From contig JBCNVM010000008.1 of the NCBI GenBank assembly GCA_039630085.1, positions 7,179-71,178 of the forward strand: a DNA stretch of 64,000 bases. Reading direction: 5' to 3'. Position 1 is the first letter of the stretch, and each line of letters starts with the position of its first letter. This DNA comes from Candidatus Caldarchaeales archaeon. Its GTDB lineage: Archaea; Thermoproteota; Nitrososphaeria_A; Caldarchaeales; Calditenuaceae. Of this stretch, positions 1 to 32,579 are shown piece by piece. Position numbers and translations under genes: made by a program. The notes under the pieces were generated by a model that saw only the letters and a list, made by a program, of their open reading frames with translations, searched no databases and was not told the origin of the DNA.

Positions 1-307
1 GGCTCAGGACGAACCTCGCCTCGCTCGCGGTGTAGGTCACGGTGGCCAGCGTCTTCCCGGACCTGCTCCTGACGGTCCTCAGGGTCGGCCTCTCCTCCGC
101 CTCGGGCGCCGGCTGCTGCTCCGCGGCCCTCCTCGCTACCAGCATGTCGGCCCTCTTGAAGCTCGACTTCGCGAGGGCCTCGTCGACGAACCTCACCATC
201 GCCTTCAGCCTCTCGAGCTCCGACTGGAGCTCCGATATCCTCCTCTCGAGCCAGGCCTTCAGCTCGGCGAGCTCCTGGGCCCTCTCTCCCTCCTCTGAGT
301 AATCCAT
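1..307 (-). CDS. Hypothetical coiled-coil protein, 5' part only (runs off the window); last visible gene of the Ub-E2-E1 operon
   Basis: My own reverse-complement translation from the ATG at 305-307 gives MDYSEEGERAQELAELKAWLERRISELQSELERLKAMVRFVDEALAKSS..., with no stop in 102 codons. It starts 7 nt after the E1 stop, and GAGG lies in that spacer. The track's + strand ORF 42-302 is its shadow. Confidence 0.5.
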   Translation of the reverse strand, partial: MDYSEEGERAQELAELKAWLERRISELQSELERLKAMVRFVDEALAKSSFKRADMLVARRAAEQQPAPEAEERPTLRTVRSRSGKTLATVTYTASEARFVLS

Positions 308-314
308 AGGCCTC

Positions 315-1526
315 TCACTCGGGCCCGTTGCCCGCCGGGGGATATGGGTCTTTCGACCCGACCCGCTCGGCGGCGATCAGCTTGAGCGGGAGCGGCGAGT
401 AGCGCCTGGAGGTCACGACGTAGACGATGGCCGAGCCCCTCTCGCCGAGGACCTCCGAGAGCCGCTCCTCGTCCTGGAGGACCCTGGTCCCGAAGAGGAC
501 CTCGACGTCGGGGAAGCCGAACCTCTCCGCTATCTCCTCGCGGAGCCTCGAGACGGTGCCGTCGGGCTCGACCTCCATCACCGGCGGCGACTCGCTATCG
601 CCGCAGACGATGCAGCCCTCGACCCTGCGGAGCGGGACGACCGTGAACCTGCAGGACCTTGCGTCGTATACCAAAAGGCCCCTCCTCGGCCTCCCGACCT
701 TCCCTCTGTGGACCAGCTTGAGGACCTCGGTCGAAGCTACCCCCGCGACGACCGCTGAGACGCTCTGGAGGGCTGGGAGCTTCGGCCTGAGCCTCTCCCT
801 CAGCGAGACGATCACCGAACCGACGACGGGATCTGCGAAGTCGGCGGGGTTGGAGTACTTGATGTCGTAGACGGTCTTGACGTTGTGGGCGAAGAGCCTC
901 CGGGCTGTCTCGAGGGGGAGCCGTATCCCCTGATCCTCCAGCTCCCTCATCAGCTCCTCCGGGGTCCTCTTCCTGAGCGTGCACTCGGCGAGCCTCTCCT
1001 CCCGGGGTATCAGGGTCATGCTGTGGCACTCGAGGCACGCGGTCCTGAACGGCAGGACGACCTGGACGTTGCCGACCATCCCCTCCATAGCGCCGTCGAC
1101 CAGGGGCTTCGAGAGCGAGACCGCGACCGAGTTCAGCCACCTCCTTATCCCCCAGCTGTCGAGGCAGGAGCAGATGACGTCGGCCTCCGCGAAGACCTCC
1201 TCCCTCAGGTCCCTGAGGTCCGAGTGGTAGGCTTCGACCCGCACGTGCGGGTTCAGGGCCCTGAGCCTCTCCGCGGCCACGATCGCCTTAGGCTTTCCGA
1301 CGTCCTCCTCGAGGAAGAGCATCTGCCTGTTGAGGTTGCTCAGCTCCACGACGTCCCTGTCCACCAGTATCAGCCTCCCGACGCCTGCTAGGGCCAGGTT
1401 CTTCGCGACCTCGCAGCCTAGGGCCCCGACGCCGGCGATGAGGACCGTCGAGCGCATCACGAGCTCCTGGTCCCAGCCCTCGATCCTCATCTGCCTGTCG
1501 TAGCGCTCCAGGTCCGGAGTTCGCAT
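315..1526 (-). CDS. Ubiquitin-activating E1-like enzyme (ThiF/MoeB/UBA family) with a C-terminal ubiquitin-fold-like extension
   Basis: LIAGVGALGCEVAKNLALAGVGRLILVDRDVVELSNLNRQ is the Rossmann/adenylation motif of E1/MoeB enzymes. There are two CxxC pairs (CLEC, CIVC). The roughly 90-aa C-terminal tail looks beta-grasp-like. Only a 3-nt gap separates it from the E2 gene, and an AGGGG SD-like element lies upstream. Confidence 0.85.
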   Translation of the reverse strand: MRTPDLERYDRQMRIEGWDQELVMRSTVLIAGVGALGCEVAKNLALAGVGRLILVDRDVVELSNLNRQMLFLEEDVGKPKAIVAAERLRALNPHVRVEAYHSDLRDLREEVFAEADVICSCLDSWGIRRWLNSVAVSLSKPLVDGAMEGMVGNVQVVLPFRTACLECHSMTLIPREERLAECTLRKRTPEELMRELEDQGIRLPLETARRLFAHNVKTVYDIKYSNPADFADPVVGSVIVSLRERLRPKLPALQSVSAVVAGVASTEVLKLVHRGKVGRPRRGLLVYDARSCRFTVVPLRRVEGCIVCGDSESPPVMEVEPDGTVSRLREEIAERFGFPDVEVLFGTRVLQDEERLSEVLGERGSAIVYVVTSRRYSPLPLKLIAAERVGSKDPYPPAGNGPE

Positions 1527-1529
1527 GAA

Positions 1530-2021
1530 TCAGCCCCTGAGGACCTTCTCGGGGGTCGCGTAGAGCTCGATGTACTGCCGGACCCTCGCCTCGAACGTGT
1601 GGAAGGAGTTCTTCATCTCGTAGGCGGCCCAGGCGTTGAGGGGGTCGTCGGGGTTCGGGTTCGAGAGGAGGTTCTTCAGGGCCTCGATCACCGCGACCAG
1701 GTGTATGTTCGGGTACCAGTCCTTCGTGAGGATCGACTCGCAGATCCTCGCGGGGACCTCGTCGGTGAAGTTCGGGTGCCAGATCCTGGTGAGCCAGAGG
1801 ACCCTAGGGGGAGTGTAGGGGAAGGTCCTGTCGAGGAAGACCTCGACGAGGAACATCCCGCCCTCGTAGAGCCCGGTCCCGACTATCACGCCCCTGTAGT
1901 GGGTGAGGTCCCCCCTCACCGTGTCGAAGGTCGGCTCGTAGTTCCTCACCAGCTGGTACTCCTGGGCCAGCCTCCTGTACCAGAGGTGCTCGGGGAGGAG
2001 GCCGACCTCTTCGCTGTACAA
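1530..2021 (-). CDS. Ubiquitin-conjugating enzyme E2 (UBC fold)
   Basis: YEGGMFLVEVFLDRTFPYTPPRVLWLTRIWHPNF...ARICESIL...LLSNPNPDDPLN contains the canonical UBC core, the HPN motif and a catalytic Cys about 8 residues downstream. It has a TTG start 4 nt after the Ub stop, with GAGAGG just upstream. Confidence 0.85.
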   Translation of the reverse strand: MYSEEVGLLPEHLWYRRLAQEYQLVRNYEPTFDTVRGDLTHYRGVIVGTGLYEGGMFLVEVFLDRTFPYTPPRVLWLTRIWHPNFTDEVPARICESILTKDWYPNIHLVAVIEALKNLLSNPNPDDPLNAWAAYEMKNSFHTFEARVRQYIELYATPEKVLRG

Positions 2022-2025
2022 CCTC

Positions 2026-2262
2026 TCACCCGCCGACCGTCCTCGTGACCAGGACTAGCTTGTCCCCCTCCGCGACGCCCGCCGACTCCAGCGTCTCCGT
2101 GTCCCCGAGCGCCCTGCCCTTGTAGGTGAGCTTCGCGTCGTCGGGCCTGAGCTTCTTCATCGCGCAGACCCTGAGCTTTATCGCGCCCACGGTCGTGTTC
2201 GGCGGGACGTCGATCTCGAGGGGTGGTCCTCCTCCCACGGCGGGGACTATCCTCACCCTCAT
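2026..2262 (-). CDS. Ubiquitin-like protein, 78 aa, ending in GG directly before the stop codon
   Basis: MRVRIVPAVGGGPPLEIDVPPNTTVGAIKLRVCAMKKLRPDDAKLTYKGRALGDTETLESAGVAEGDKLVLVTRTVGG aligns by eye with eukaryotic ubiquitin (LEV.P.DT...VK..I, L.F.GK.L.D..TL, L.LV.R..GG). I chose the start at Met58 of track ORF 2026-2433, because the upstream extension runs into the tRNA gene and a TATA-like box lies 26-33 nt upstream of this ATG. Confidence 0.75.
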   Translation of the reverse strand: MRVRIVPAVGGGPPLEIDVPPNTTVGAIKLRVCAMKKLRPDDAKLTYKGRALGDTETLESAGVAEGDKLVLVTRTVGG

Positions 2263-2389: not shown

Positions 2390-2476
2390 CGCCGGGGGCG
2401 GGATTCGAACCCGCGCGGCTCACGGGGAGCCACAGGCTCTCAAGGCCTGCCCCTTGGTCCACTCGGGCACCCCGGC
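2390..2476 (-). tRNA. tRNA-Ser (anticodon UGA), class II with a long variable arm; no intron, CCA not encoded
   Basis: Minus-strand read: GCCGGGG-TG-CCCGAGTGGACCAAGGGG-CAGGC-CTTGAGA-GCCTG-TGGCTCCCCGTGAGCCGC-GCGGG-TTCGAAT-CCCGC-CCCCGGC-G. There is a 7-bp acceptor stem, a GGTTCGAATCC T-arm and the anticodon loop CU-UGA-GA. A TATA-like CTAAAAT lies 23-30 nt upstream (2499-2506). Confidence 0.9.
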
Positions 2477-17966: not shown

Positions 17967-18629
17967 CTAAACCGGTCGGGCGGGCGCCTCCGGGGCCTTT
18001 CTCCTCTCCAAGACCCTCTTGATGTGCTTGAGCTTCACGAAGTAGTCCCTGTCGGACTCCTCGAGGGACATCGCGATCTCCTTTATCGCGCTCCTGTACC
18101 TCGGCATGATGACGTACTCGAGGGCGTTCAGGAGCCTCTGGGTCCTCTTCAGCTCCTCCGCGATCCTGAAGATCGCGTTCTCGATGGCCGCGGCCCTGCA
18201 GACGTCGCCTATGACCGACCTCAGCTTCCTGGAGGCCTCGTCGAGGTGCACAGAGGTCTCGAGGAACCCGTAGGGCAGCGGGAAGGAGGCCTGCTCCAGC
18301 TCGACCGTAGGGACCTGGATCCCCATCATCGTGTAGGACCCGACCTTGACCTTCACAGTCTCGGGGAGCGTGGAGGTGATCGTCTGGATCGCGCCCGGCC
18401 CGGACTTCAGATAAGCGGCGATCAGCTCCTGGTAGGCCTCGGAGAGCTTCGCGGAGAGCGCCTCCCTCAGCTCCTGGGCCTCGTCGATGAGCTCGTTGAT
18501 CCTCCTCACCAGCACGTCCCTCTTGTCCTCGAGGATCCTGTAGACCCTCTCAGCGGTCCTGAGGGACCTCCGCAGCCTCAGCAGCTCGAGCCTCGTCCTC
18601 AGGTAGCCTCCTCCGAAGGCGACCGACAT
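17967..18629 (-). CDS. atpD: A-type (V-type) ATP synthase subunit D
   Basis: 220 aa, coiled-coil. RLELLRLRRSLRTAERVYRILEDKRDVLV at the N-terminus and RRINALEYVIMP-like LLNALEYVIMPRY near the C-terminus are typical of NtpD/AtpD. It has its own TATA-like box about 25 nt upstream. Confidence 0.85.
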   Translation of the reverse strand: MSVAFGGGYLRTRLELLRLRRSLRTAERVYRILEDKRDVLVRRINELIDEAQELREALSAKLSEAYQELIAAYLKSGPGAIQTITSTLPETVKVKVGSYTMMGIQVPTVELEQASFPLPYGFLETSVHLDEASRKLRSVIGDVCRAAAIENAIFRIAEELKRTQRLLNALEYVIMPRYRSAIKEIAMSLEESDRDYFVKLKHIKRVLERRKAPEAPARPV

Positions 18630-18674: not shown

Positions 18675-19841
18675 TCAGGCCTTCCTCAGCAGGACCGCGC
18701 TCTCCCTCGTCTCGCCGATCCTCTTCACCCTCTCGTAGGTCGCGACCCTCTTCGCCAGCGCCATCACCCGCTCCACCTCGAACCCGAGCCTCCTCGCGAT
18801 CCTCGCGAGGACTAGGTCCACCTCGACGACGAGCCCCGGGTAGACGCCGCCGGAGACGACGTAGGCCGCCCTCCCTCCCCTCCTCAGCACCCTCAGGGCC
18901 TCGGAGAGGGACTGCTCGAGGTCGGCGAAGTACGCGACCGCCGATCCGGGGAGGCCCTCGGCCTCTGGAGGGACCCTGCCGGGCCTGGGAGAGAGCCCGA
19001 TGTAGGACCTGATCAGGTCCGGCCTCCGGCCCCCGAGGAACAGCTCCATCTCGATCTCGTAGACTCTGGTGTACTCGATCTTGTTCAGGTAGGGCGGCGA
19101 GGTGATGACCGCGTCCACCGACCCCTCTCCGAGGAAATTCAGCTCCCTCGCGTCCCCGAGGTAGATCTCCGCGGGCCCCGACTTCAGGGCGATCCTCTCC
19201 ACGTCTTCGATCATCTTCCTGACCTTGGACCTGAAGGCCTTCGGGAGATCCGGGACCGGCCGCCTCTCGATTTTAATGACCGAACCTTCCTTGACCGCGT
19301 AGGAGCACCTCATCGCCGCGGACATGAGGGCCAGCGTGAAGAACGCCTTGACGTCGCGGTCTCCGATGCCCGCGACCTCCTCCCTCAGCGAGAGGAGCTG
19401 GCGGAGGGTCTCGGACCTGAAGGCCCTCCTCACGAGCGGGCTGAGCCCCGAGAGGTCGTGCGTCCTGAACCTGACCGAGGCCAGACGCTCCGCCTCCGCC
19501 CTCAGCCTCTCCGGGTCGTACCTCCTGGTCTTCGCGAAGCTGATCAGGACCATGAGCGGCGAGGCGTCCACGCCGACGGCCCCCAGCCCCAGCTCCATGC
19601 AGGTGAGCGGCGTCGTCCCCGACCCCACGAACGGGTCCAGCACCACCTCGCCCTCGCGCAGGCCCATCCTCTTGATCAGCAGCTCGACGAGGTCCCTCGA
19701 GAATCCCTCCTTGAAGTGGAACCACCTGTGGACCGGATATGCGAGGTTCGGCTCGAAGGTCGGGAGCCTCCAGAGGTCGTAGCGGAGCTCGAAGGCGAAC
19801 TCGTCGGCCCCCTGGCCCTGGACGCCGTCGGAGAGCGTCAC
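18675..19841 (-). CDS. SAM-dependent N6-adenine/N4-cytosine DNA methyltransferase, alpha-class motif order (orphan)
   Basis: VLDPFVGSGTT (motif I) comes about 170 aa before ITSPPYLN (motif IV). I chose a GTG start at 19839-19841 that overlaps the upstream TGA (GTGA). The track ORF extends to 20117 as Arg/Pro-rich sequence overlapping the previous gene. Confidence 0.7.
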   Translation of the reverse strand: MTLSDGVQGQGADEFAFELRYDLWRLPTFEPNLAYPVHRWFHFKEGFSRDLVELLIKRMGLREGEVVLDPFVGSGTTPLTCMELGLGAVGVDASPLMVLISFAKTRRYDPERLRAEAERLASVRFRTHDLSGLSPLVRRAFRSETLRQLLSLREEVAGIGDRDVKAFFTLALMSAAMRCSYAVKEGSVIKIERRPVPDLPKAFRSKVRKMIEDVERIALKSGPAEIYLGDARELNFLGEGSVDAVITSPPYLNKIEYTRVYEIEMELFLGGRRPDLIRSYIGLSPRPGRVPPEAEGLPGSAVAYFADLEQSLSEALRVLRRGGRAAYVVSGGVYPGLVVEVDLVLARIARRLGFEVERVMALAKRVATYERVKRIGETRESAVLLRKA

Positions 19842-20698
19842 GCCTGCTTCTGGGACGTGAGCTTCTTGTACAGGTAGAGGATCGCGTACTCCCTCGGGAC
19901 CTGCTCGTCCTGGACGACCCTCGCGATCGCGTGCTGGAGCTTGGACTCGTCGAGGGGCTTCGACTCCTTGAGCCTCTTCAGATACTCGGGAGCGAGGTCG
20001 GCGTAGGTCGTCAGCTTGTAGATCAGGTTCGGGAGGTTCCTGAGGAGCTCCAGCTTCTGGAGGAGTTCTCCCCTCGCGGACATGATCCGTGCTATCTCGT
20101 CCCTGATCCTGCTGCACTCGGCCTCGAGCTCGGCTATCGAGAGTTGGCTCTCAGACCTGCCCCCGGCCCTCGCCTCGTAGAGATACTCGAGGTCGACGGA
20201 CTTGTCGAAGAGCACCTGCTCGAGCTCCGAGATCACCGAGTCCATCTCGTTGACGGCCTGCTGGATCACCGCCTCGACATCGCCGGCGCTCGCGAGGACC
20301 CTGCTCCTCTCCGCCTCGAGCTCGCTCAGCTTCCTCTTCACCACGGCCAGGTTAGGCGTCGGGTACTTCTCGACGAAGACCCGCTGGATCGACTTGTCGA
20401 GCGTCTTGATCTCCTCCATCCTCGCAAGGAGCTCCTCGAACCTCGCCTTCGCCCTCCTCGCGCCCTCCTCGGCCCTCCTGACCAGCTCCTCGGTCTCGGG
20501 GCTCACAGTCGCCTGACGGGGCTGCTCGGGGACCGGCTGGACCTGCGGGAGCTCCTCGACGGGCTGCCTCTCCTGAACACCAGCCGGAGGGGCCTGGGCG
20601 ACGGGAGGCTGGGCAAATGGGTCCTGCTGCTGGGGCTGGTCGAGGGGACGCCTCCTGATGATGATCCTGCGGCGCTGGTCGAACGTCACTGCCTCCAC
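19838..20698 (-). CDS. Hypothetical protein: P/Q-rich N-terminus followed by a long coiled-coil
   Basis: 286 aa. QPQQQDPFAQPPVAQAPPAGVQERQPVEELPQVQPVPEQPRQ is followed by heptad-like helical sequence. It overlaps the JAMM gene by 13 nt and the MTase gene by 4 nt. I recognise no family. Confidence 0.6.
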   Translation of the reverse strand: MEAVTFDQRRRIIIRRRPLDQPQQQDPFAQPPVAQAPPAGVQERQPVEELPQVQPVPEQPRQATVSPETEELVRRAEEGARRAKARFEELLARMEEIKTLDKSIQRVFVEKYPTPNLAVVKRKLSELEAERSRVLASAGDVEAVIQQAVNEMDSVISELEQVLFDKSVDLEYLYEARAGGRSESQLSIAELEAECSRIRDEIARIMSARGELLQKLELLRNLPNLIYKLTTYADLAPEYLKRLKESKPLDESKLQHAIARVVQDEQVPREYAILYLYKKLTSQKQA

Positions 20699-21324
20699 CA
20701 GGCTATCCTGCTGATGAGCTCGTTTAAGTAATAGAGCAGCCCCCTGCCCTCGCTTCCCCCCGGATCAACGAAGGAAGGCGCGGAGTCGTCGGGGTACGGC
20801 GTCGCGGGCAACTCCCGGCGGACGAGGAAAGGCGGCACCCTCACCTCGCCCTCGACGAGCGTCGGCACCTCGACGACCAGGCCGCTGTCCTCCATAACCC
20901 TGAAGAACTTGAAGCACGAAGGCGAGAGGCCGCCGGACTTCGCGAACTCCCAGGGGTCCACGACCAGGGCCACGGCCTTCGGGTAGAGCCTCTGGTAGTT
21001 CAGCTGGGTCGCGTAGTCGACCGCGGAGAGGAAGACACCCATTCCGGGGTGGGTGTGGTACCATCCGACGACGTAGAGGTTCCCCCTCTGTCCCTCCAGC
21101 AGTTCGGAGAGCGCGGCCATCAGCGAGTCGTCGAGGGAGACGTGACCCGCGGAGCCCCTCTGCCTGCCGGTCACCGCGTCAGTCACCAAGAGCTCCTCCT
21201 TCCTCTCCCTCCCGATCAGGAGCCCCGCGACCTCCCTCCTGGGGTGGCTGAGCCCGTGCCTCATCACCTTCGCGAGGGCCTCGCCCGAGACCCTGATCAC
21301 GACCTTTCCGGGCTTGCTGGCCAC
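20686..21324 (-). CDS. JAMM/MPN+ metalloprotease (Rpn11/CSN5-like putative deubiquitinase)
   Basis: REVAGLLIG (conserved Glu) plus GWYHTHPGMGVFLSAVD give a complete E...HxHx7Sx2D JAMM motif. 212 aa with a roughly 80-aa C-terminal extension. Confidence 0.85.
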   Translation of the reverse strand: MASKPGKVVIRVSGEALAKVMRHGLSHPRREVAGLLIGRERKEELLVTDAVTGRQRGSAGHVSLDDSLMAALSELLEGQRGNLYVVGWYHTHPGMGVFLSAVDYATQLNYQRLYPKAVALVVDPWEFAKSGGLSPSCFKFFRVMEDSGLVVEVPTLVEGEVRVPPFLVRRELPATPYPDDSAPSFVDPGGSEGRGLLYYLNELISRIAWWRQ

Positions 21325-21477
21325 CGGAGGTATTTATGCGGATTCCCCGTGAGGTCCGCGTCCGTATTTCGTGCCGAATCATGCGGGATGACCCCGGATG
21401 GGCCCGAGTAGGCCAGACCCCGAAGCCTCCGGGGACAGGTCACGGCTTAATACGGATGAGGCAGACGCGGCCTCCGG

Positions 21478-22476
21478 ATGGAAGGGGAGCCGGTGAGGGT
21501 CGCGGTCGTCGGCGCGGGGTTCTGGGGGAGGAACCACGTCAGGGTGCTGACCGAGCTCCGAGGGTGCGAGGTGACCGCGGTCTGCGACGTCGACTTGGCG
21601 AGGGCGAAGGAGGTCGCGAGGAGGTTCAGGGTCGAGAGGTACTTCACGGACTACAGGGAGCTCCTGAGGGACGACGAGGTCGACGCGGTCACGGTCTGCA
21701 CGCCCTCGACGACCCACGCGAGGATCGCCGTCGACTTCCTGACCTCGGGGAAGCACGTCTTGGTCGAGAAGCCGATGGCCTCGAGCGTCGGGGAGGCCAT
21801 GGAGGTCGTCGAGGCCCAGAGGTCTTCGGGGATGAAGGTGATGGTGGGACACATCGAGCGCTTCAACCCCGCGGTCGTAAGGGCAATGGACGAGATCGGG
21901 TCGGGGACGATCGGCGAGCCGCTCCTGATCTACGGGAGGAGGATCGGGCCGTGGCCGGAGAGGATTGGCGACGTGGGCGTCGTCCACGACACCACGATCC
22001 ACGACATCGACCTGGCCTACTGCGTGTTCGGCTCGCCACCGTCGGGCGTCTTCGCGGTCGGAGGGTCGCTGATCCACGCGAAGGAGGACCACGTCCAGGT
22101 CACGCTGAGGTTCGACTCGGGGAGGTCGGCGGTCCTCGAGTCGAACTGGCTCACGCCGAGGAAGAAGAGGGAGATGTACATCACCGGGACGCAGGGCGTG
22201 ATCAGACTCGAGTTCCTCACGAGGGAGGTCGTGATAGAGAAGAGCGAGGGCTCCTACTCGCCGATGGTCGGACAGATCGAGCCGCTCAGGGCCGAGCTCG
22301 AGGCGTTCGTGAGTTCGGTCGCGGAGGGGAAGGAGCCTGTCCCGAACCACATCGACGGCCTGATCTCGGTGGCGGTCGCCGACGCGGTCCTCCTCTCAAT
22401 CAGGACCGGGAAGGTCGTCGGGCTCGAGGAGTTCATCGGCGAGCACGGCGTCAGTCTGAGGTCCCTGAGGCCCTGA
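21478..22476 (+). CDS. Gfo/Idh/MocA-family NAD(P)-dependent oxidoreductase
   Basis: VAVVGAGFWGRNHVRVL Rossmann N-terminus and an EKP motif (VLVEKPMA). 332 aa. A TATA-like CTTAATAC lies about 27 nt upstream. Confidence 0.85.
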   Translation: MEGEPVRVAVVGAGFWGRNHVRVLTELRGCEVTAVCDVDLARAKEVARRFRVERYFTDYRELLRDDEVDAVTVCTPSTTHARIAVDFLTSGKHVLVEKPMASSVGEAMEVVEAQRSSGMKVMVGHIERFNPAVVRAMDEIGSGTIGEPLLIYGRRIGPWPERIGDVGVVHDTTIHDIDLAYCVFGSPPSGVFAVGGSLIHAKEDHVQVTLRFDSGRSAVLESNWLTPRKKREMYITGTQGVIRLEFLTREVVIEKSEGSYSPMVGQIEPLRAELEAFVSSVAEGKEPVPNHIDGLISVAVADAVLLSIRTGKVVGLEEFIGEHGVSLRSLRP

Positions 22477-31982: not shown

Positions 31983-32579
31983 TCAGAGGTTCCTCGTCCC
32001 CTCTGCCCCGGAGACCTTAAGGCCCTCCGGGACGTCCGGGAAAGCGGTCTTCATCCTCTGCGCGGCGATCTCCGACGCCTCTTGGAGAATCTTCTGGGCC
32101 TCCGGGTCCGCGATCGAGACGCTCACCACCGTCCCCGAGACGCTGCCAGCCTCCGCTATCAGTCCCTCGAGCACCTCGTCGACGTACCTCAGGTTCTGGG
32201 CGACCTCCGGGACTATGCCTGCGAGGTCGGACTGGACCTGCTTGACGATCGCGGTCGCCGGGCCGAGGACGTGCATGACGTCCCCGAACTCCTTCACCGT
32301 CTCGAGCCTCAGGATCACCTTCTCGAGCGAGAGCTGGCTCCTCACGACGACCCTCGACATCTTCCTCAGCTGCGCGATCTCGTTCGCGTAGATCGTGGCC
32401 CTGCTGACGTCGCCCTCCTGCTGCGCCCTCACGCACTGCTCGAAGAGCTCCTTGGCCCTCGCGGAGAGCCTCGAGACCGTGCGGTTCAGCTTGTCCGACT
32501 GGATCCTCAGCGCCATCAGCACCTCGGTGAACCTGGCGTCGCTCGTCGTTATCGACTCCTTCACGAAGGGTATCCTCAT
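31983..32579 (-). CDS. cdvB: ESCRT-III (Snf7/CdvB family) protein
   Basis: 198 aa and all-helical, with a basic N-terminal half and an acidic C-terminal half. The layout LRKMSRVVVRSQLSLEKVILRLETVKEFGDVM...IVPEV...EVLEGL is typical of CdvB paralogs. A TATA-like CTTTTAG lies about 30 nt upstream. Confidence 0.75.
   Translation of the reverse strand: MRIPFVKESITTSDARFTEVLMALRIQSDKLNRTVSRLSARAKELFEQCVRAQQEGDVSRATIYANEIAQLRKMSRVVVRSQLSLEKVILRLETVKEFGDVMHVLGPATAIVKQVQSDLAGIVPEVAQNLRYVDEVLEGLIAEAGSVSGTVVSVSIADPEAQKILQEASEIAAQRMKTAFPDVPEGLKVSGAEGTRNL

Follow-up and report, generated by a model that had tools for sequence, protein, structure and literature searches.

Is the gene that follows an archaeal deubiquitinase gene an accidental neighbour, or does it encode a partner of the enzyme? 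This question is raised by a stretch of 64,000 nucleotides of a Candidatus Caldarchaeales archaeon (contig JBCNVM010000008.1, positions 7,179 to 71,178; the whole stretch is referred to as the window), in which the gene of a JAMM protease of the Rpn11 type is followed by the genes of a long helical ("coiled-coil") protein and of a methyltransferase (MTase), away from the genes of ubiquitin, E2 and E1. The analysis leans, if only slightly, toward the reading in which the JAMM protein is an Rpn11 isopeptidase having the helical protein as a non-catalytic partner, with the MTase gene being an incidental neighbour. The partnership itself, which from these sequence data we regard as an evenly balanced proposition, is proposed because of the conserved start/stop coupling of the two genes, two independent relocations in which the pair has stayed intact, and the adaptor-type architecture predicted for the helical protein.

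The JAMM protein

Three open reading frames (ORFs) were first listed on the minus strand (20686-21324, 212 residues; 19838-20698, 286 residues; and 18675-20117), and all three are present in the window, head to tail. The first one carries the motif E(REVAG)...HTHPG...SAVD, with FLSAVD being read in the translation, in agreement with the pattern E ... HxHx7S ... D, and it matches the Pfam JAB family with an E-value of 9.6e-19 (67.8 bits, with a cut-off of 22.5). The catalytic glutamate, the HxH histidines, the serine and the aspartate are conserved in the alignment of the orthologs and match the catalytic residues of Rpn11 of Caldiarchaeum subterraneum (CsRpn11, CSUB_C1473), whose ubiquitin system has been described by Nunoura 2011 (PMC3082918), Hennell James 2017 (PMC5654768) and Fuchs 2018 (PMC6043591). 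The gene is the only JAB match on its contig, in agreement with a preliminary description of the window, where a single JAMM protein with a complete motif was noted; two further JAB genes are found on other contigs of this genome.

Among the solved structures, the best match is CsRpn11 (Protein Data Bank [PDB] entries 6FJU and 6FJV, with 6FNN and 6FNO being further entries for the C. subterraneum system), which matches with an E-value of 1.7e-38 and is about 50% identical in its catalytic domain, followed by yeast Rpn11 (E 3.7e-19), human Rpn11, CSN5 (about 1e-15), AMSH and BRCC36. By sequence, the protein is classified as an ortholog of CsRpn11, and it belongs therefore to the ubiquitin clade and not to the clade of enzymes acting on small archaeal modifier proteins (SAMPs), nor is it closer to JAB proteins of the RadC type; its earlier description as an Rpn11-like, deubiquitinase-like enzyme is in agreement with this ranking. 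CsRpn11 trims the ubiquitin precursor and cleaves isopeptide-linked conjugates, and SAMP precursors are not cleaved (PMC6043591, PMC5654768). For the enzyme of the window, isopeptidase activity on ubiquitin conjugates is a well-grounded prediction from orthology.

For the JAMM gene, the most likely start codon is GTG 21300, giving a protein of 204 residues (20686-21300, minus strand), and not 21324, where the longest ORF begins. The evidence comes from the sister species: in L003 and L004 an in-frame TAG shortly precedes the codon that corresponds to GTG 21300, and L002 has no start codon at the position of 21324; the GTG itself is common to all sister species compared (L002-L004). About 31-38 nucleotides upstream of this start, at 21331-21338 (minus strand), there is a TATA-like box, CATAAATA, which is kept as CATAAATA or CATATATA in the same three species and which, given this conservation, is a candidate archaeal promoter of the unit.

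For the comparisons across the class, 76 species genomes from four families and 15 genera were sampled (the genera are numbered g1 to g15, with g1 being the genus of the window). The C-terminal tail of the JAMM protein occurs in three forms across this class. In family f2 it is hydrophobic and transmembrane-like, a stretch of 19 residues having a mean hydrophobicity of 0.94. In most other genera it is a basic amphipathic helix of the LFxKAKKLF type, similar to that of MinD, and in the genus of the window it is a Trp-rich helix. These forms hint at membrane association or at helix–helix contacts of the archaeal deubiquitinase. The Rpn11-like proteins of family f2 are 260-266 residues long (L023:4784-5584, L024:3152-3943 and L025:4803-5585).

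Linkage of the JAMM and helical genes across the class

The helical gene more likely starts at GTG 20689, giving 283 residues (19838-20689, minus strand) and a GTGA overlap of four nucleotides with the JAMM gene. The alternative start, GTG 20698, corresponds to 286 residues and to the overlap of 13 nucleotides that had been reported initially, and that overlap holds only with this start. In g2, g4, one genome of g3 (L010) and the deeper species of g1, an ATG or GTG is found at −4 with respect to the JAMM stop (ATGA or GTGA), directly followed by a conserved basic–aliphatic motif (KK-IVI-KRR), and GTG 20689 therefore fits better with the relatives; three other g3 genomes have candidate starts at −8 and −20 instead. 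The overlap of the two genes is four nucleotides in g1, g2, g4 and the one g3 genome, and in the other families there is a gap of 1-35 nucleotides. Overlaps of stop and start codons are common in compact archaeal genomes, such that on their own they are weak evidence of coupling, and it is the conservation across genomes that carries the argument. Co-translation, which the preliminary description had deduced from the overlaps, is a plausible consequence of them, though they do not demonstrate it.

From each of the 15 genera, loci with the surroundings of the helical gene or of the E2 gene were retrieved, and the genes of JAMM, the helical protein, MTase, ubiquitin, E2 and E1 were placed in them by tblastn. 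In 11 of the 15 genera, representing all four families, the JAMM gene is immediately followed by the helical gene, so that the suggestion of a conserved partner gene in the neighbourhoods of the relatives is borne out. Seven genera (g3, g4, g5, g6, g7, g8 and g11) share a layout in which the helical gene follows the JAMM gene and this pair is head to head with the series ubiquitin, E2 and E1. More generally, JAMM orthologs are head to head with ubiquitin, E2 and E1 in g3-g9 and g11, and with the ubiquitin gene alone in g2, where the pair adjoins the ubiquitin gene and E2 is 11 kb away. The genus g7 includes C. subterraneum, represented by locus L013; this identity is concluded because the JAMM translation of L013 is identical to the aligned residues of the PDB chain of CsRpn11 and because the locus encodes a ubiquitin precursor of 87 residues with the published C-G-E... 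tail. The order of JAMM and helical gene had been presented as a departure from the canonical archaeal layout, which does not hold, since C. subterraneum itself has this order.

In two genera, g1 and g10, the JAMM and helical genes are together, away from ubiquitin, E2 and E1. In the window, the JAMM gene (20686-21300) is apart from the ubiquitin gene (2026-2262), as was pointed out initially, with 16-19 kb between the pair and the ubiquitin genes. Within g1, the separation is 18.7 kb in the closest species and 68 kb in another one; in g10, a genus of another family, the pair and the ubiquitin, E2 and E1 genes are on different contigs. The head-to-head layout is most simply taken as ancestral, and the splits in g1 and g10 then appear as independent relocations, in both of which the two genes have remained paired. 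Only the move of the pair away from ubiquitin, E2 and E1 is unusual in the window. Immediately upstream of the ubiquitin gene of the window, at 2390-2476 (minus strand), a tRNA-Ser(TGA) gene is found at the site where most related genera have the JAMM gene head to head with the ubiquitin gene; it is possibly a marker of the breakpoint of the relocation.

Distribution and predicted structure of the helical protein

A profile built from an alignment of 26 orthologs (A1) detects the helical gene in 71 of the 76 genomes of the class, including all 43 high-quality ones. Applied to 256 genomes from other classes of this phylum, the same profile finds no orthologs and gives only short coiled-coil noise. 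When 1.84 billion cluster representatives are searched exhaustively with HMMER, 14 clusters are obtained with E <1e-30, all having 197-274 residues, followed by a 40-residue fragment and then noise, and no fusion proteins with the helical protein appear at any length. A word-based search of 5.8 billion proteins, swamped by coiled-coil candidates, gives 10 close relatives among the matches listed. The helical protein is restricted to this archaeal class.

Where the gene is named in the source annotation, also in C. subterraneum, it is called "hypothetical protein", and the unlabelled genes of the C. subterraneum cluster figure are, according to PMC3082918, hypothetical proteins. Rpn11 is described as juxtaposed to the ubiquitin operon in the three C. 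subterraneum papers (PMC3082918, PMC5654768 and PMC6043591), whose searched text has no mention of the downstream helical gene. A full-text search for its presumed locus tag, as deduced from the gene numbering, also gave no match. The helical gene is a conserved uncharacterised neighbour of Rpn11 that has been overlooked so far.

In the AlphaFold2 model of the helical protein (mean predicted local distance difference test [pLDDT] 82.9, predicted template modelling score 0.71), the region before residue 60 is disordered, with pLDDT values below 50 for residues 1-58. Long helices are predicted for residues 64-108, 114-175 and 182-217, followed by four short helices, with pLDDT values above 90 over most of this helical body. 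This is consistent with the initial characterisation as a Gln/Pro-rich N-terminus preceding a long coiled coil. The only conserved element of the first 60 residues is a basic β-strand-type motif close to the N-terminus (20648-20674, minus strand), having the form [KR][KR]-I-[IV]-[IVL]-[KR] throughout the class (RRRIIIRRR in the window, PKKIVLRIKP in C. subterraneum), in which I9 is nearly invariant in A1; in the monomer model its pLDDT is low. It is followed by a linker of about 45-50 residues (20510-20647, minus strand) of low complexity, which is not conserved and cannot be aligned between genera, being P/Q-rich here and E/K/P-rich in other genera. The helical body (19841-20500, minus strand) is predicted to consist of three long helices and a four-helix end domain, in which the best-conserved motifs, LPxxIxxLTT and VPREYAI, are found. 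The residues E157, L160, E189, T227 and Y268 are invariant in A1.

That the middle protein belongs to no recognised family was confirmed by each of the searches. Pfam has no match for the protein of the window and, at E-values up to 1, only generic coiled-coil families for all 26 members, and NCBIfam gives only a subthreshold match to an ATPase coiled coil. The profile search of PDB sequences returns designed coiled coils, prefoldin and TSG101 (E 0.0004-0.1), none of these being credible, and nothing for the end domain alone. When the full model is compared with the PDB, the best Foldseek E-value is 0.065, and in the wide VIA-align comparison the top Z-score of 12.5 belongs to a designed protein and none of the matches stands out; the noise band for such helical models extends to a Z-score of about 13. 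The end domain folded alone (pLDDT 73.6) has its best Z-score, 6.6, with the AROD domain of archaeal RPA, with Foldseek E-values above 6, and shape and feature searches of the ESM Atlas returned nothing usable. In summary, the helical protein has no match in the sequence libraries and no structural match above the helical background.

A relationship with ESCRT-III/CdvB was considered and rejected, as there is no Pfam Snf7 match, and the comparison of A1 with the CdvB alignment of the class (A3) by hhalign gives a probability of 0.4%. The Z-scores of the model with the Snf7 core (9.6), with CHMP2A–CHMP3 (9.2) and with CdvA (10.0) are all inside the noise band. CdvA is said to be missing in C. 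subterraneum (PMC3082918), and the idea that the helical protein replaces it there was dropped, since it rested only on the helical match with a Z-score of 10. The single Snf7/CdvB (ESCRT-III) gene of the genome is located in the window at 31983-32579 (minus strand), about 11 kb from the JAMM pair, and its profile is unrelated to that of the helical protein.

Possible roles of the helical protein

In the proposed mechanism, the JAMM enzyme would be a zinc isopeptidase that takes archaeal ubiquitin, encoded 18 kb away, off modified proteins. The local ubiquitin ends with GG-stop, so that trimming of a precursor is unneeded, and deconjugation is the likely role of the enzyme. The helical protein would be made from the same transcript and would act, by physical interaction, as a scaffold, adaptor or regulator of the deubiquitinase. 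From the predicted structure we infer roles for its helices and its motif. The helical bundle may provide a docking surface, plausibly for the variable C-terminal helix of the JAMM enzyme; the tail is a candidate docking site. In CsRpn11 the C-terminal helices are dispensable for catalysis, and the recombinant enzyme is active alone in vitro (PMC6043591, where a truncated form lacking residues 149-202 was used). The flexible arm ending in the basic β-strand motif could pair with the edge of a β-sheet of ubiquitin or of the substrate groove of the enzyme.

Several observations weigh against this partnership. CsRpn11 being active alone, with its tail dispensable, a partner is not needed for the basic activity. 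In g9, g13, g14 and g15, all of one family, the helical gene stands alone with JAMM still being next to ubiquitin, and the adjacency of the JAMM and helical genes is therefore not obligatory. The E2 gene is present in every sampled genome of the class, and as both the ubiquitin system and the helical protein are universal in the class, their co-occurrence has no discriminating power. Finally, in other classes of the phylum there are five genomes (L083-L087) with ubiquitin–E2–E1 clusters and no homolog of the helical protein.

A more specific form of the partnership, which we put forward tentatively and consider rather unlikely as a whole, is that the helical protein is a sixth component of the ubiquitin system, being a lineage-specific receptor or adaptor on which Rpn11 docks, with the motif engaging ubiquitin or the substrate groove of the enzyme, possibly at the membrane. 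The membrane is brought in because of the C-terminus of the JAMM protein, which resembles a transmembrane segment in one family and, in most of the others, the basic amphipathic helix of MinD.

It is also possible, though doubtful, that the job of the helical protein is unrelated to ubiquitin, being that of a structural or cell-biological coiled-coil protein whose place next to JAMM is merely inherited gene order. This would agree with the four genera in which the helical gene stands alone, where it adjoins a convergent operon of HMG-CoA synthase, thiolase and DUF35 that also flanks the helical gene in C. subterraneum, and with the activity of CsRpn11 in vitro without the helical protein (PMC6043591), as well as with the family and structure searches, in which neither a ubiquitin-binding nor another recognisable domain was found in the helical protein. 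Inherited order is, however, less easily reconciled with the start/stop overlap or very short spacing kept across four families, or with a pair that is intact after the relocations in g1 and g10, while gene order around the cluster is otherwise poorly conserved.

The methyltransferase

The third gene (18675-19841, minus strand) encodes an MTase of 388 residues. Of the longer ORF first listed, only the last 388 codons, from GTG 19841, match the orthologs, and as no other start agrees with the N-termini of the orthologs, the GTGA overlap with the helical gene (stop at 19838-19840) stands as it was initially described. Motif I (VLDPFVGSGTT) precedes motif IV (VITSPPYLNK, including SPPY), both being in agreement with the patterns FxGxG (motif I) and (D/N/S)PP(Y/F) (motif IV) of N6/N4 amino-methyltransferases. 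The Pfam N6_N4_Mtase family matches with 55 bits, above its cut-off, over profile positions 142-213 only, and the weak PDB and NCBIfam matches include DNA amino-methyltransferases as well as tRNA m2G enzymes. No restriction gene is adjacent to it in the window.

On the basis of its GTGA overlap and of the same gene order in the other genomes of g1 (five of six; the sixth, 66% complete, gave no match), the MTase could be seen as part of one functional machine with the JAMM and helical proteins, linking deubiquitination to methylation. This is improbable, and the synteny largely refutes it, as outside g1 the ortholog is far from the pair (in C. subterraneum, whose genome is complete, about 135 kb separate it from the helical gene) and is absent from all the 8.7-kb loci of other genera. 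MTase orthologs are found in 39 of 41 relatives, with 43-59% identity and at unrelated positions outside g1, the gene being conserved across the class as a single ortholog. The idea of a conserved three-gene unit fails in the same way, because the MTase gene adjoins the pair only in g1 and is located elsewhere in 10 other genera. The protein is treated here as a class-wide housekeeping amino-methyltransferase whose overlap with the helical gene is an incidental, genus-specific result of rearrangement; in this genus it is probably co-transcribed with the pair, as an accident of genome compaction.

Ubiquitin genes and other features of the window

The ubiquitin gene (2026-2262, minus strand; Pfam ubiquitin E 1.6e-12) encodes 78 residues ending with GG-stop, a protein presumed to be the modifier on which the JAMM enzyme acts, and is followed by the genes of E2 (1530-2021, minus strand; Pfam UQ_con E 1.8e-26) and E1 (315-1526, minus strand; ThiF with a C-terminal ubiquitin-like domain, Pfam ThiF E 1.6e-60). 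The physical separation of the JAMM gene from these genes could be explained by a JAMM enzyme serving another pathway, such as SAMP/MoaD processing or nucleotide metabolism, which is very improbable given the orthology with CsRpn11, which cleaves C. subterraneum ubiquitin but not SAMP precursors, the presence in the genome of two further JAB proteins, one of them a Prok-JAB protein, that are available for other roles, and the score of 22.2 bits with the NCBIfam desampylase model, far below its cut-off of 130; the reservation made initially that the enzyme might belong to such a clade is thereby removed.

The C-terminus of ubiquitin varies by lineage, being GG-stop in g1, g3, g4, g8 and g15, having one extra residue in g2, and being extended by a propeptide (2-19 residues) in g5, g6, g7 (the genus of C. 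subterraneum), g9, g10 and g11 (loci L007-L062); not every lineage therefore needs Rpn11 for trimming a precursor. No RING gene adjoins E1 in the window, and a cluster of the Caldiarchaeum type, with a divergent Rpn11 next to ubiquitin, E2, E1 and RING, is not present in it. The small RING-finger E3 of C. subterraneum matches only inside larger ORFs (289 and 338 residues) on two other contigs of this genome (C1, L099, and C2, L100), so that the E3 here is apparently unlinked and of a different size.

The genome also has a second ubiquitin-type module, on contig C23 (L032:648-1971), where a protein of 272 residues consists of an N-terminal ubiquitin-like domain fused to an E2-like UQ_con domain, with the gene of a JAB protein of 163 residues beginning 14 nucleotides after it; similar secondary E2 matches occur in two sister genomes. 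In the five genomes L083-L087, the ubiquitin cluster is co-directional, in the order zinc-ribbon protein, JAMM, ubiquitin, E2 and E1. The JAMM protein has 212 residues in L087 and 525-534 residues in L083 and L084, the long forms having uncharacterised C-terminal extensions; in L085 and L086 there is no JAMM match at the cluster, and an ORF of 388-392 residues occupies its position.

Small coiled-coil ORFs without a Pfam family flank the E1/RING end of the cluster in C. subterraneum (L013:7711-8733; 103 and 238 residues), and next to E1 in the window there is a coiled-coil ORF of more than 102 residues (2-307, minus strand), cut by the window edge and likewise without a Pfam family. Beyond the MTase gene, the gene of V-type ATPase subunit D is found at 17967-18629, and a GFO/IDH/MocA oxidoreductase gene at 21478 is divergent from the JAMM gene.

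Implications

Among the prokaryotic models for how eukaryotic ubiquitylation arose, the best studied is the ubiquitin system of Caldiarchaeum, which has been reconstituted with five proteins. What the window contributes to this known system is only a rearranged copy; the worthwhile lead is the helical gene, an overlooked sixth gene that is class-universal and is tied to the deubiquitinase gene by an overlap or a short spacer in most genera. Should its product bind Rpn11 or steer it, the "minimal" five-protein system would be incomplete as reconstituted, and there would be an archaeal parallel to the control of JAMM deubiquitinases by partners, which is a hallmark of the eukaryotic enzymes. If the helical protein is indeed a sixth component, it would provide a stand-alone archaeal counterpart of partner-dependent JAMM control. 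As the proteins are thermostable and assays exist, the partner idea is directly testable.

Comparison with known systems

The system of the window is most similar to that of C. subterraneum, with which it shares the enzyme family, the archaeal class, the catalytic motif, about 50% identity over the JAMM domain and the helical gene downstream of Rpn11 (locus L013). It differs in the distance of 16-19 kb between the pair and the ubiquitin, E2 and E1 genes, which are head to head in C. subterraneum, in the ubiquitin without a C-terminal propeptide, in the Trp-rich tail helix of the JAMM protein, as compared with KLLESTL...KAKKLF in C. subterraneum, and in having the MTase gene behind the pair and no adjacent RING gene.

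With the eukaryotic Rpn11–Rpn8 complex of the proteasome lid, the similarity concerns the JAMM deubiquitinase, which is of the same clade (E 3.7e-19). The C-terminal helices of eukaryotic Rpn11 dock to non-catalytic partners via a helical bundle. The helical protein, by contrast, lacks an MPN domain and is not detectably similar to any of the lid subunits, and no proteasome lid is known for these archaea; docking through helices, as in Rpn11–Rpn8, is only an analogy.

The AMSH–STAM and BRCC36–Abraxas complexes are also formed by JAMM deubiquitinases, which helical or coiled-coil partners recruit or activate. Neither in sequence nor in fold was a relationship with them found, and the JAMM protein of the window has no MIT domain. 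The parallel with these complexes serves purely as a working analogy, in which a JAMM enzyme would be combined with a helical adaptor that brings the substrate or the location.

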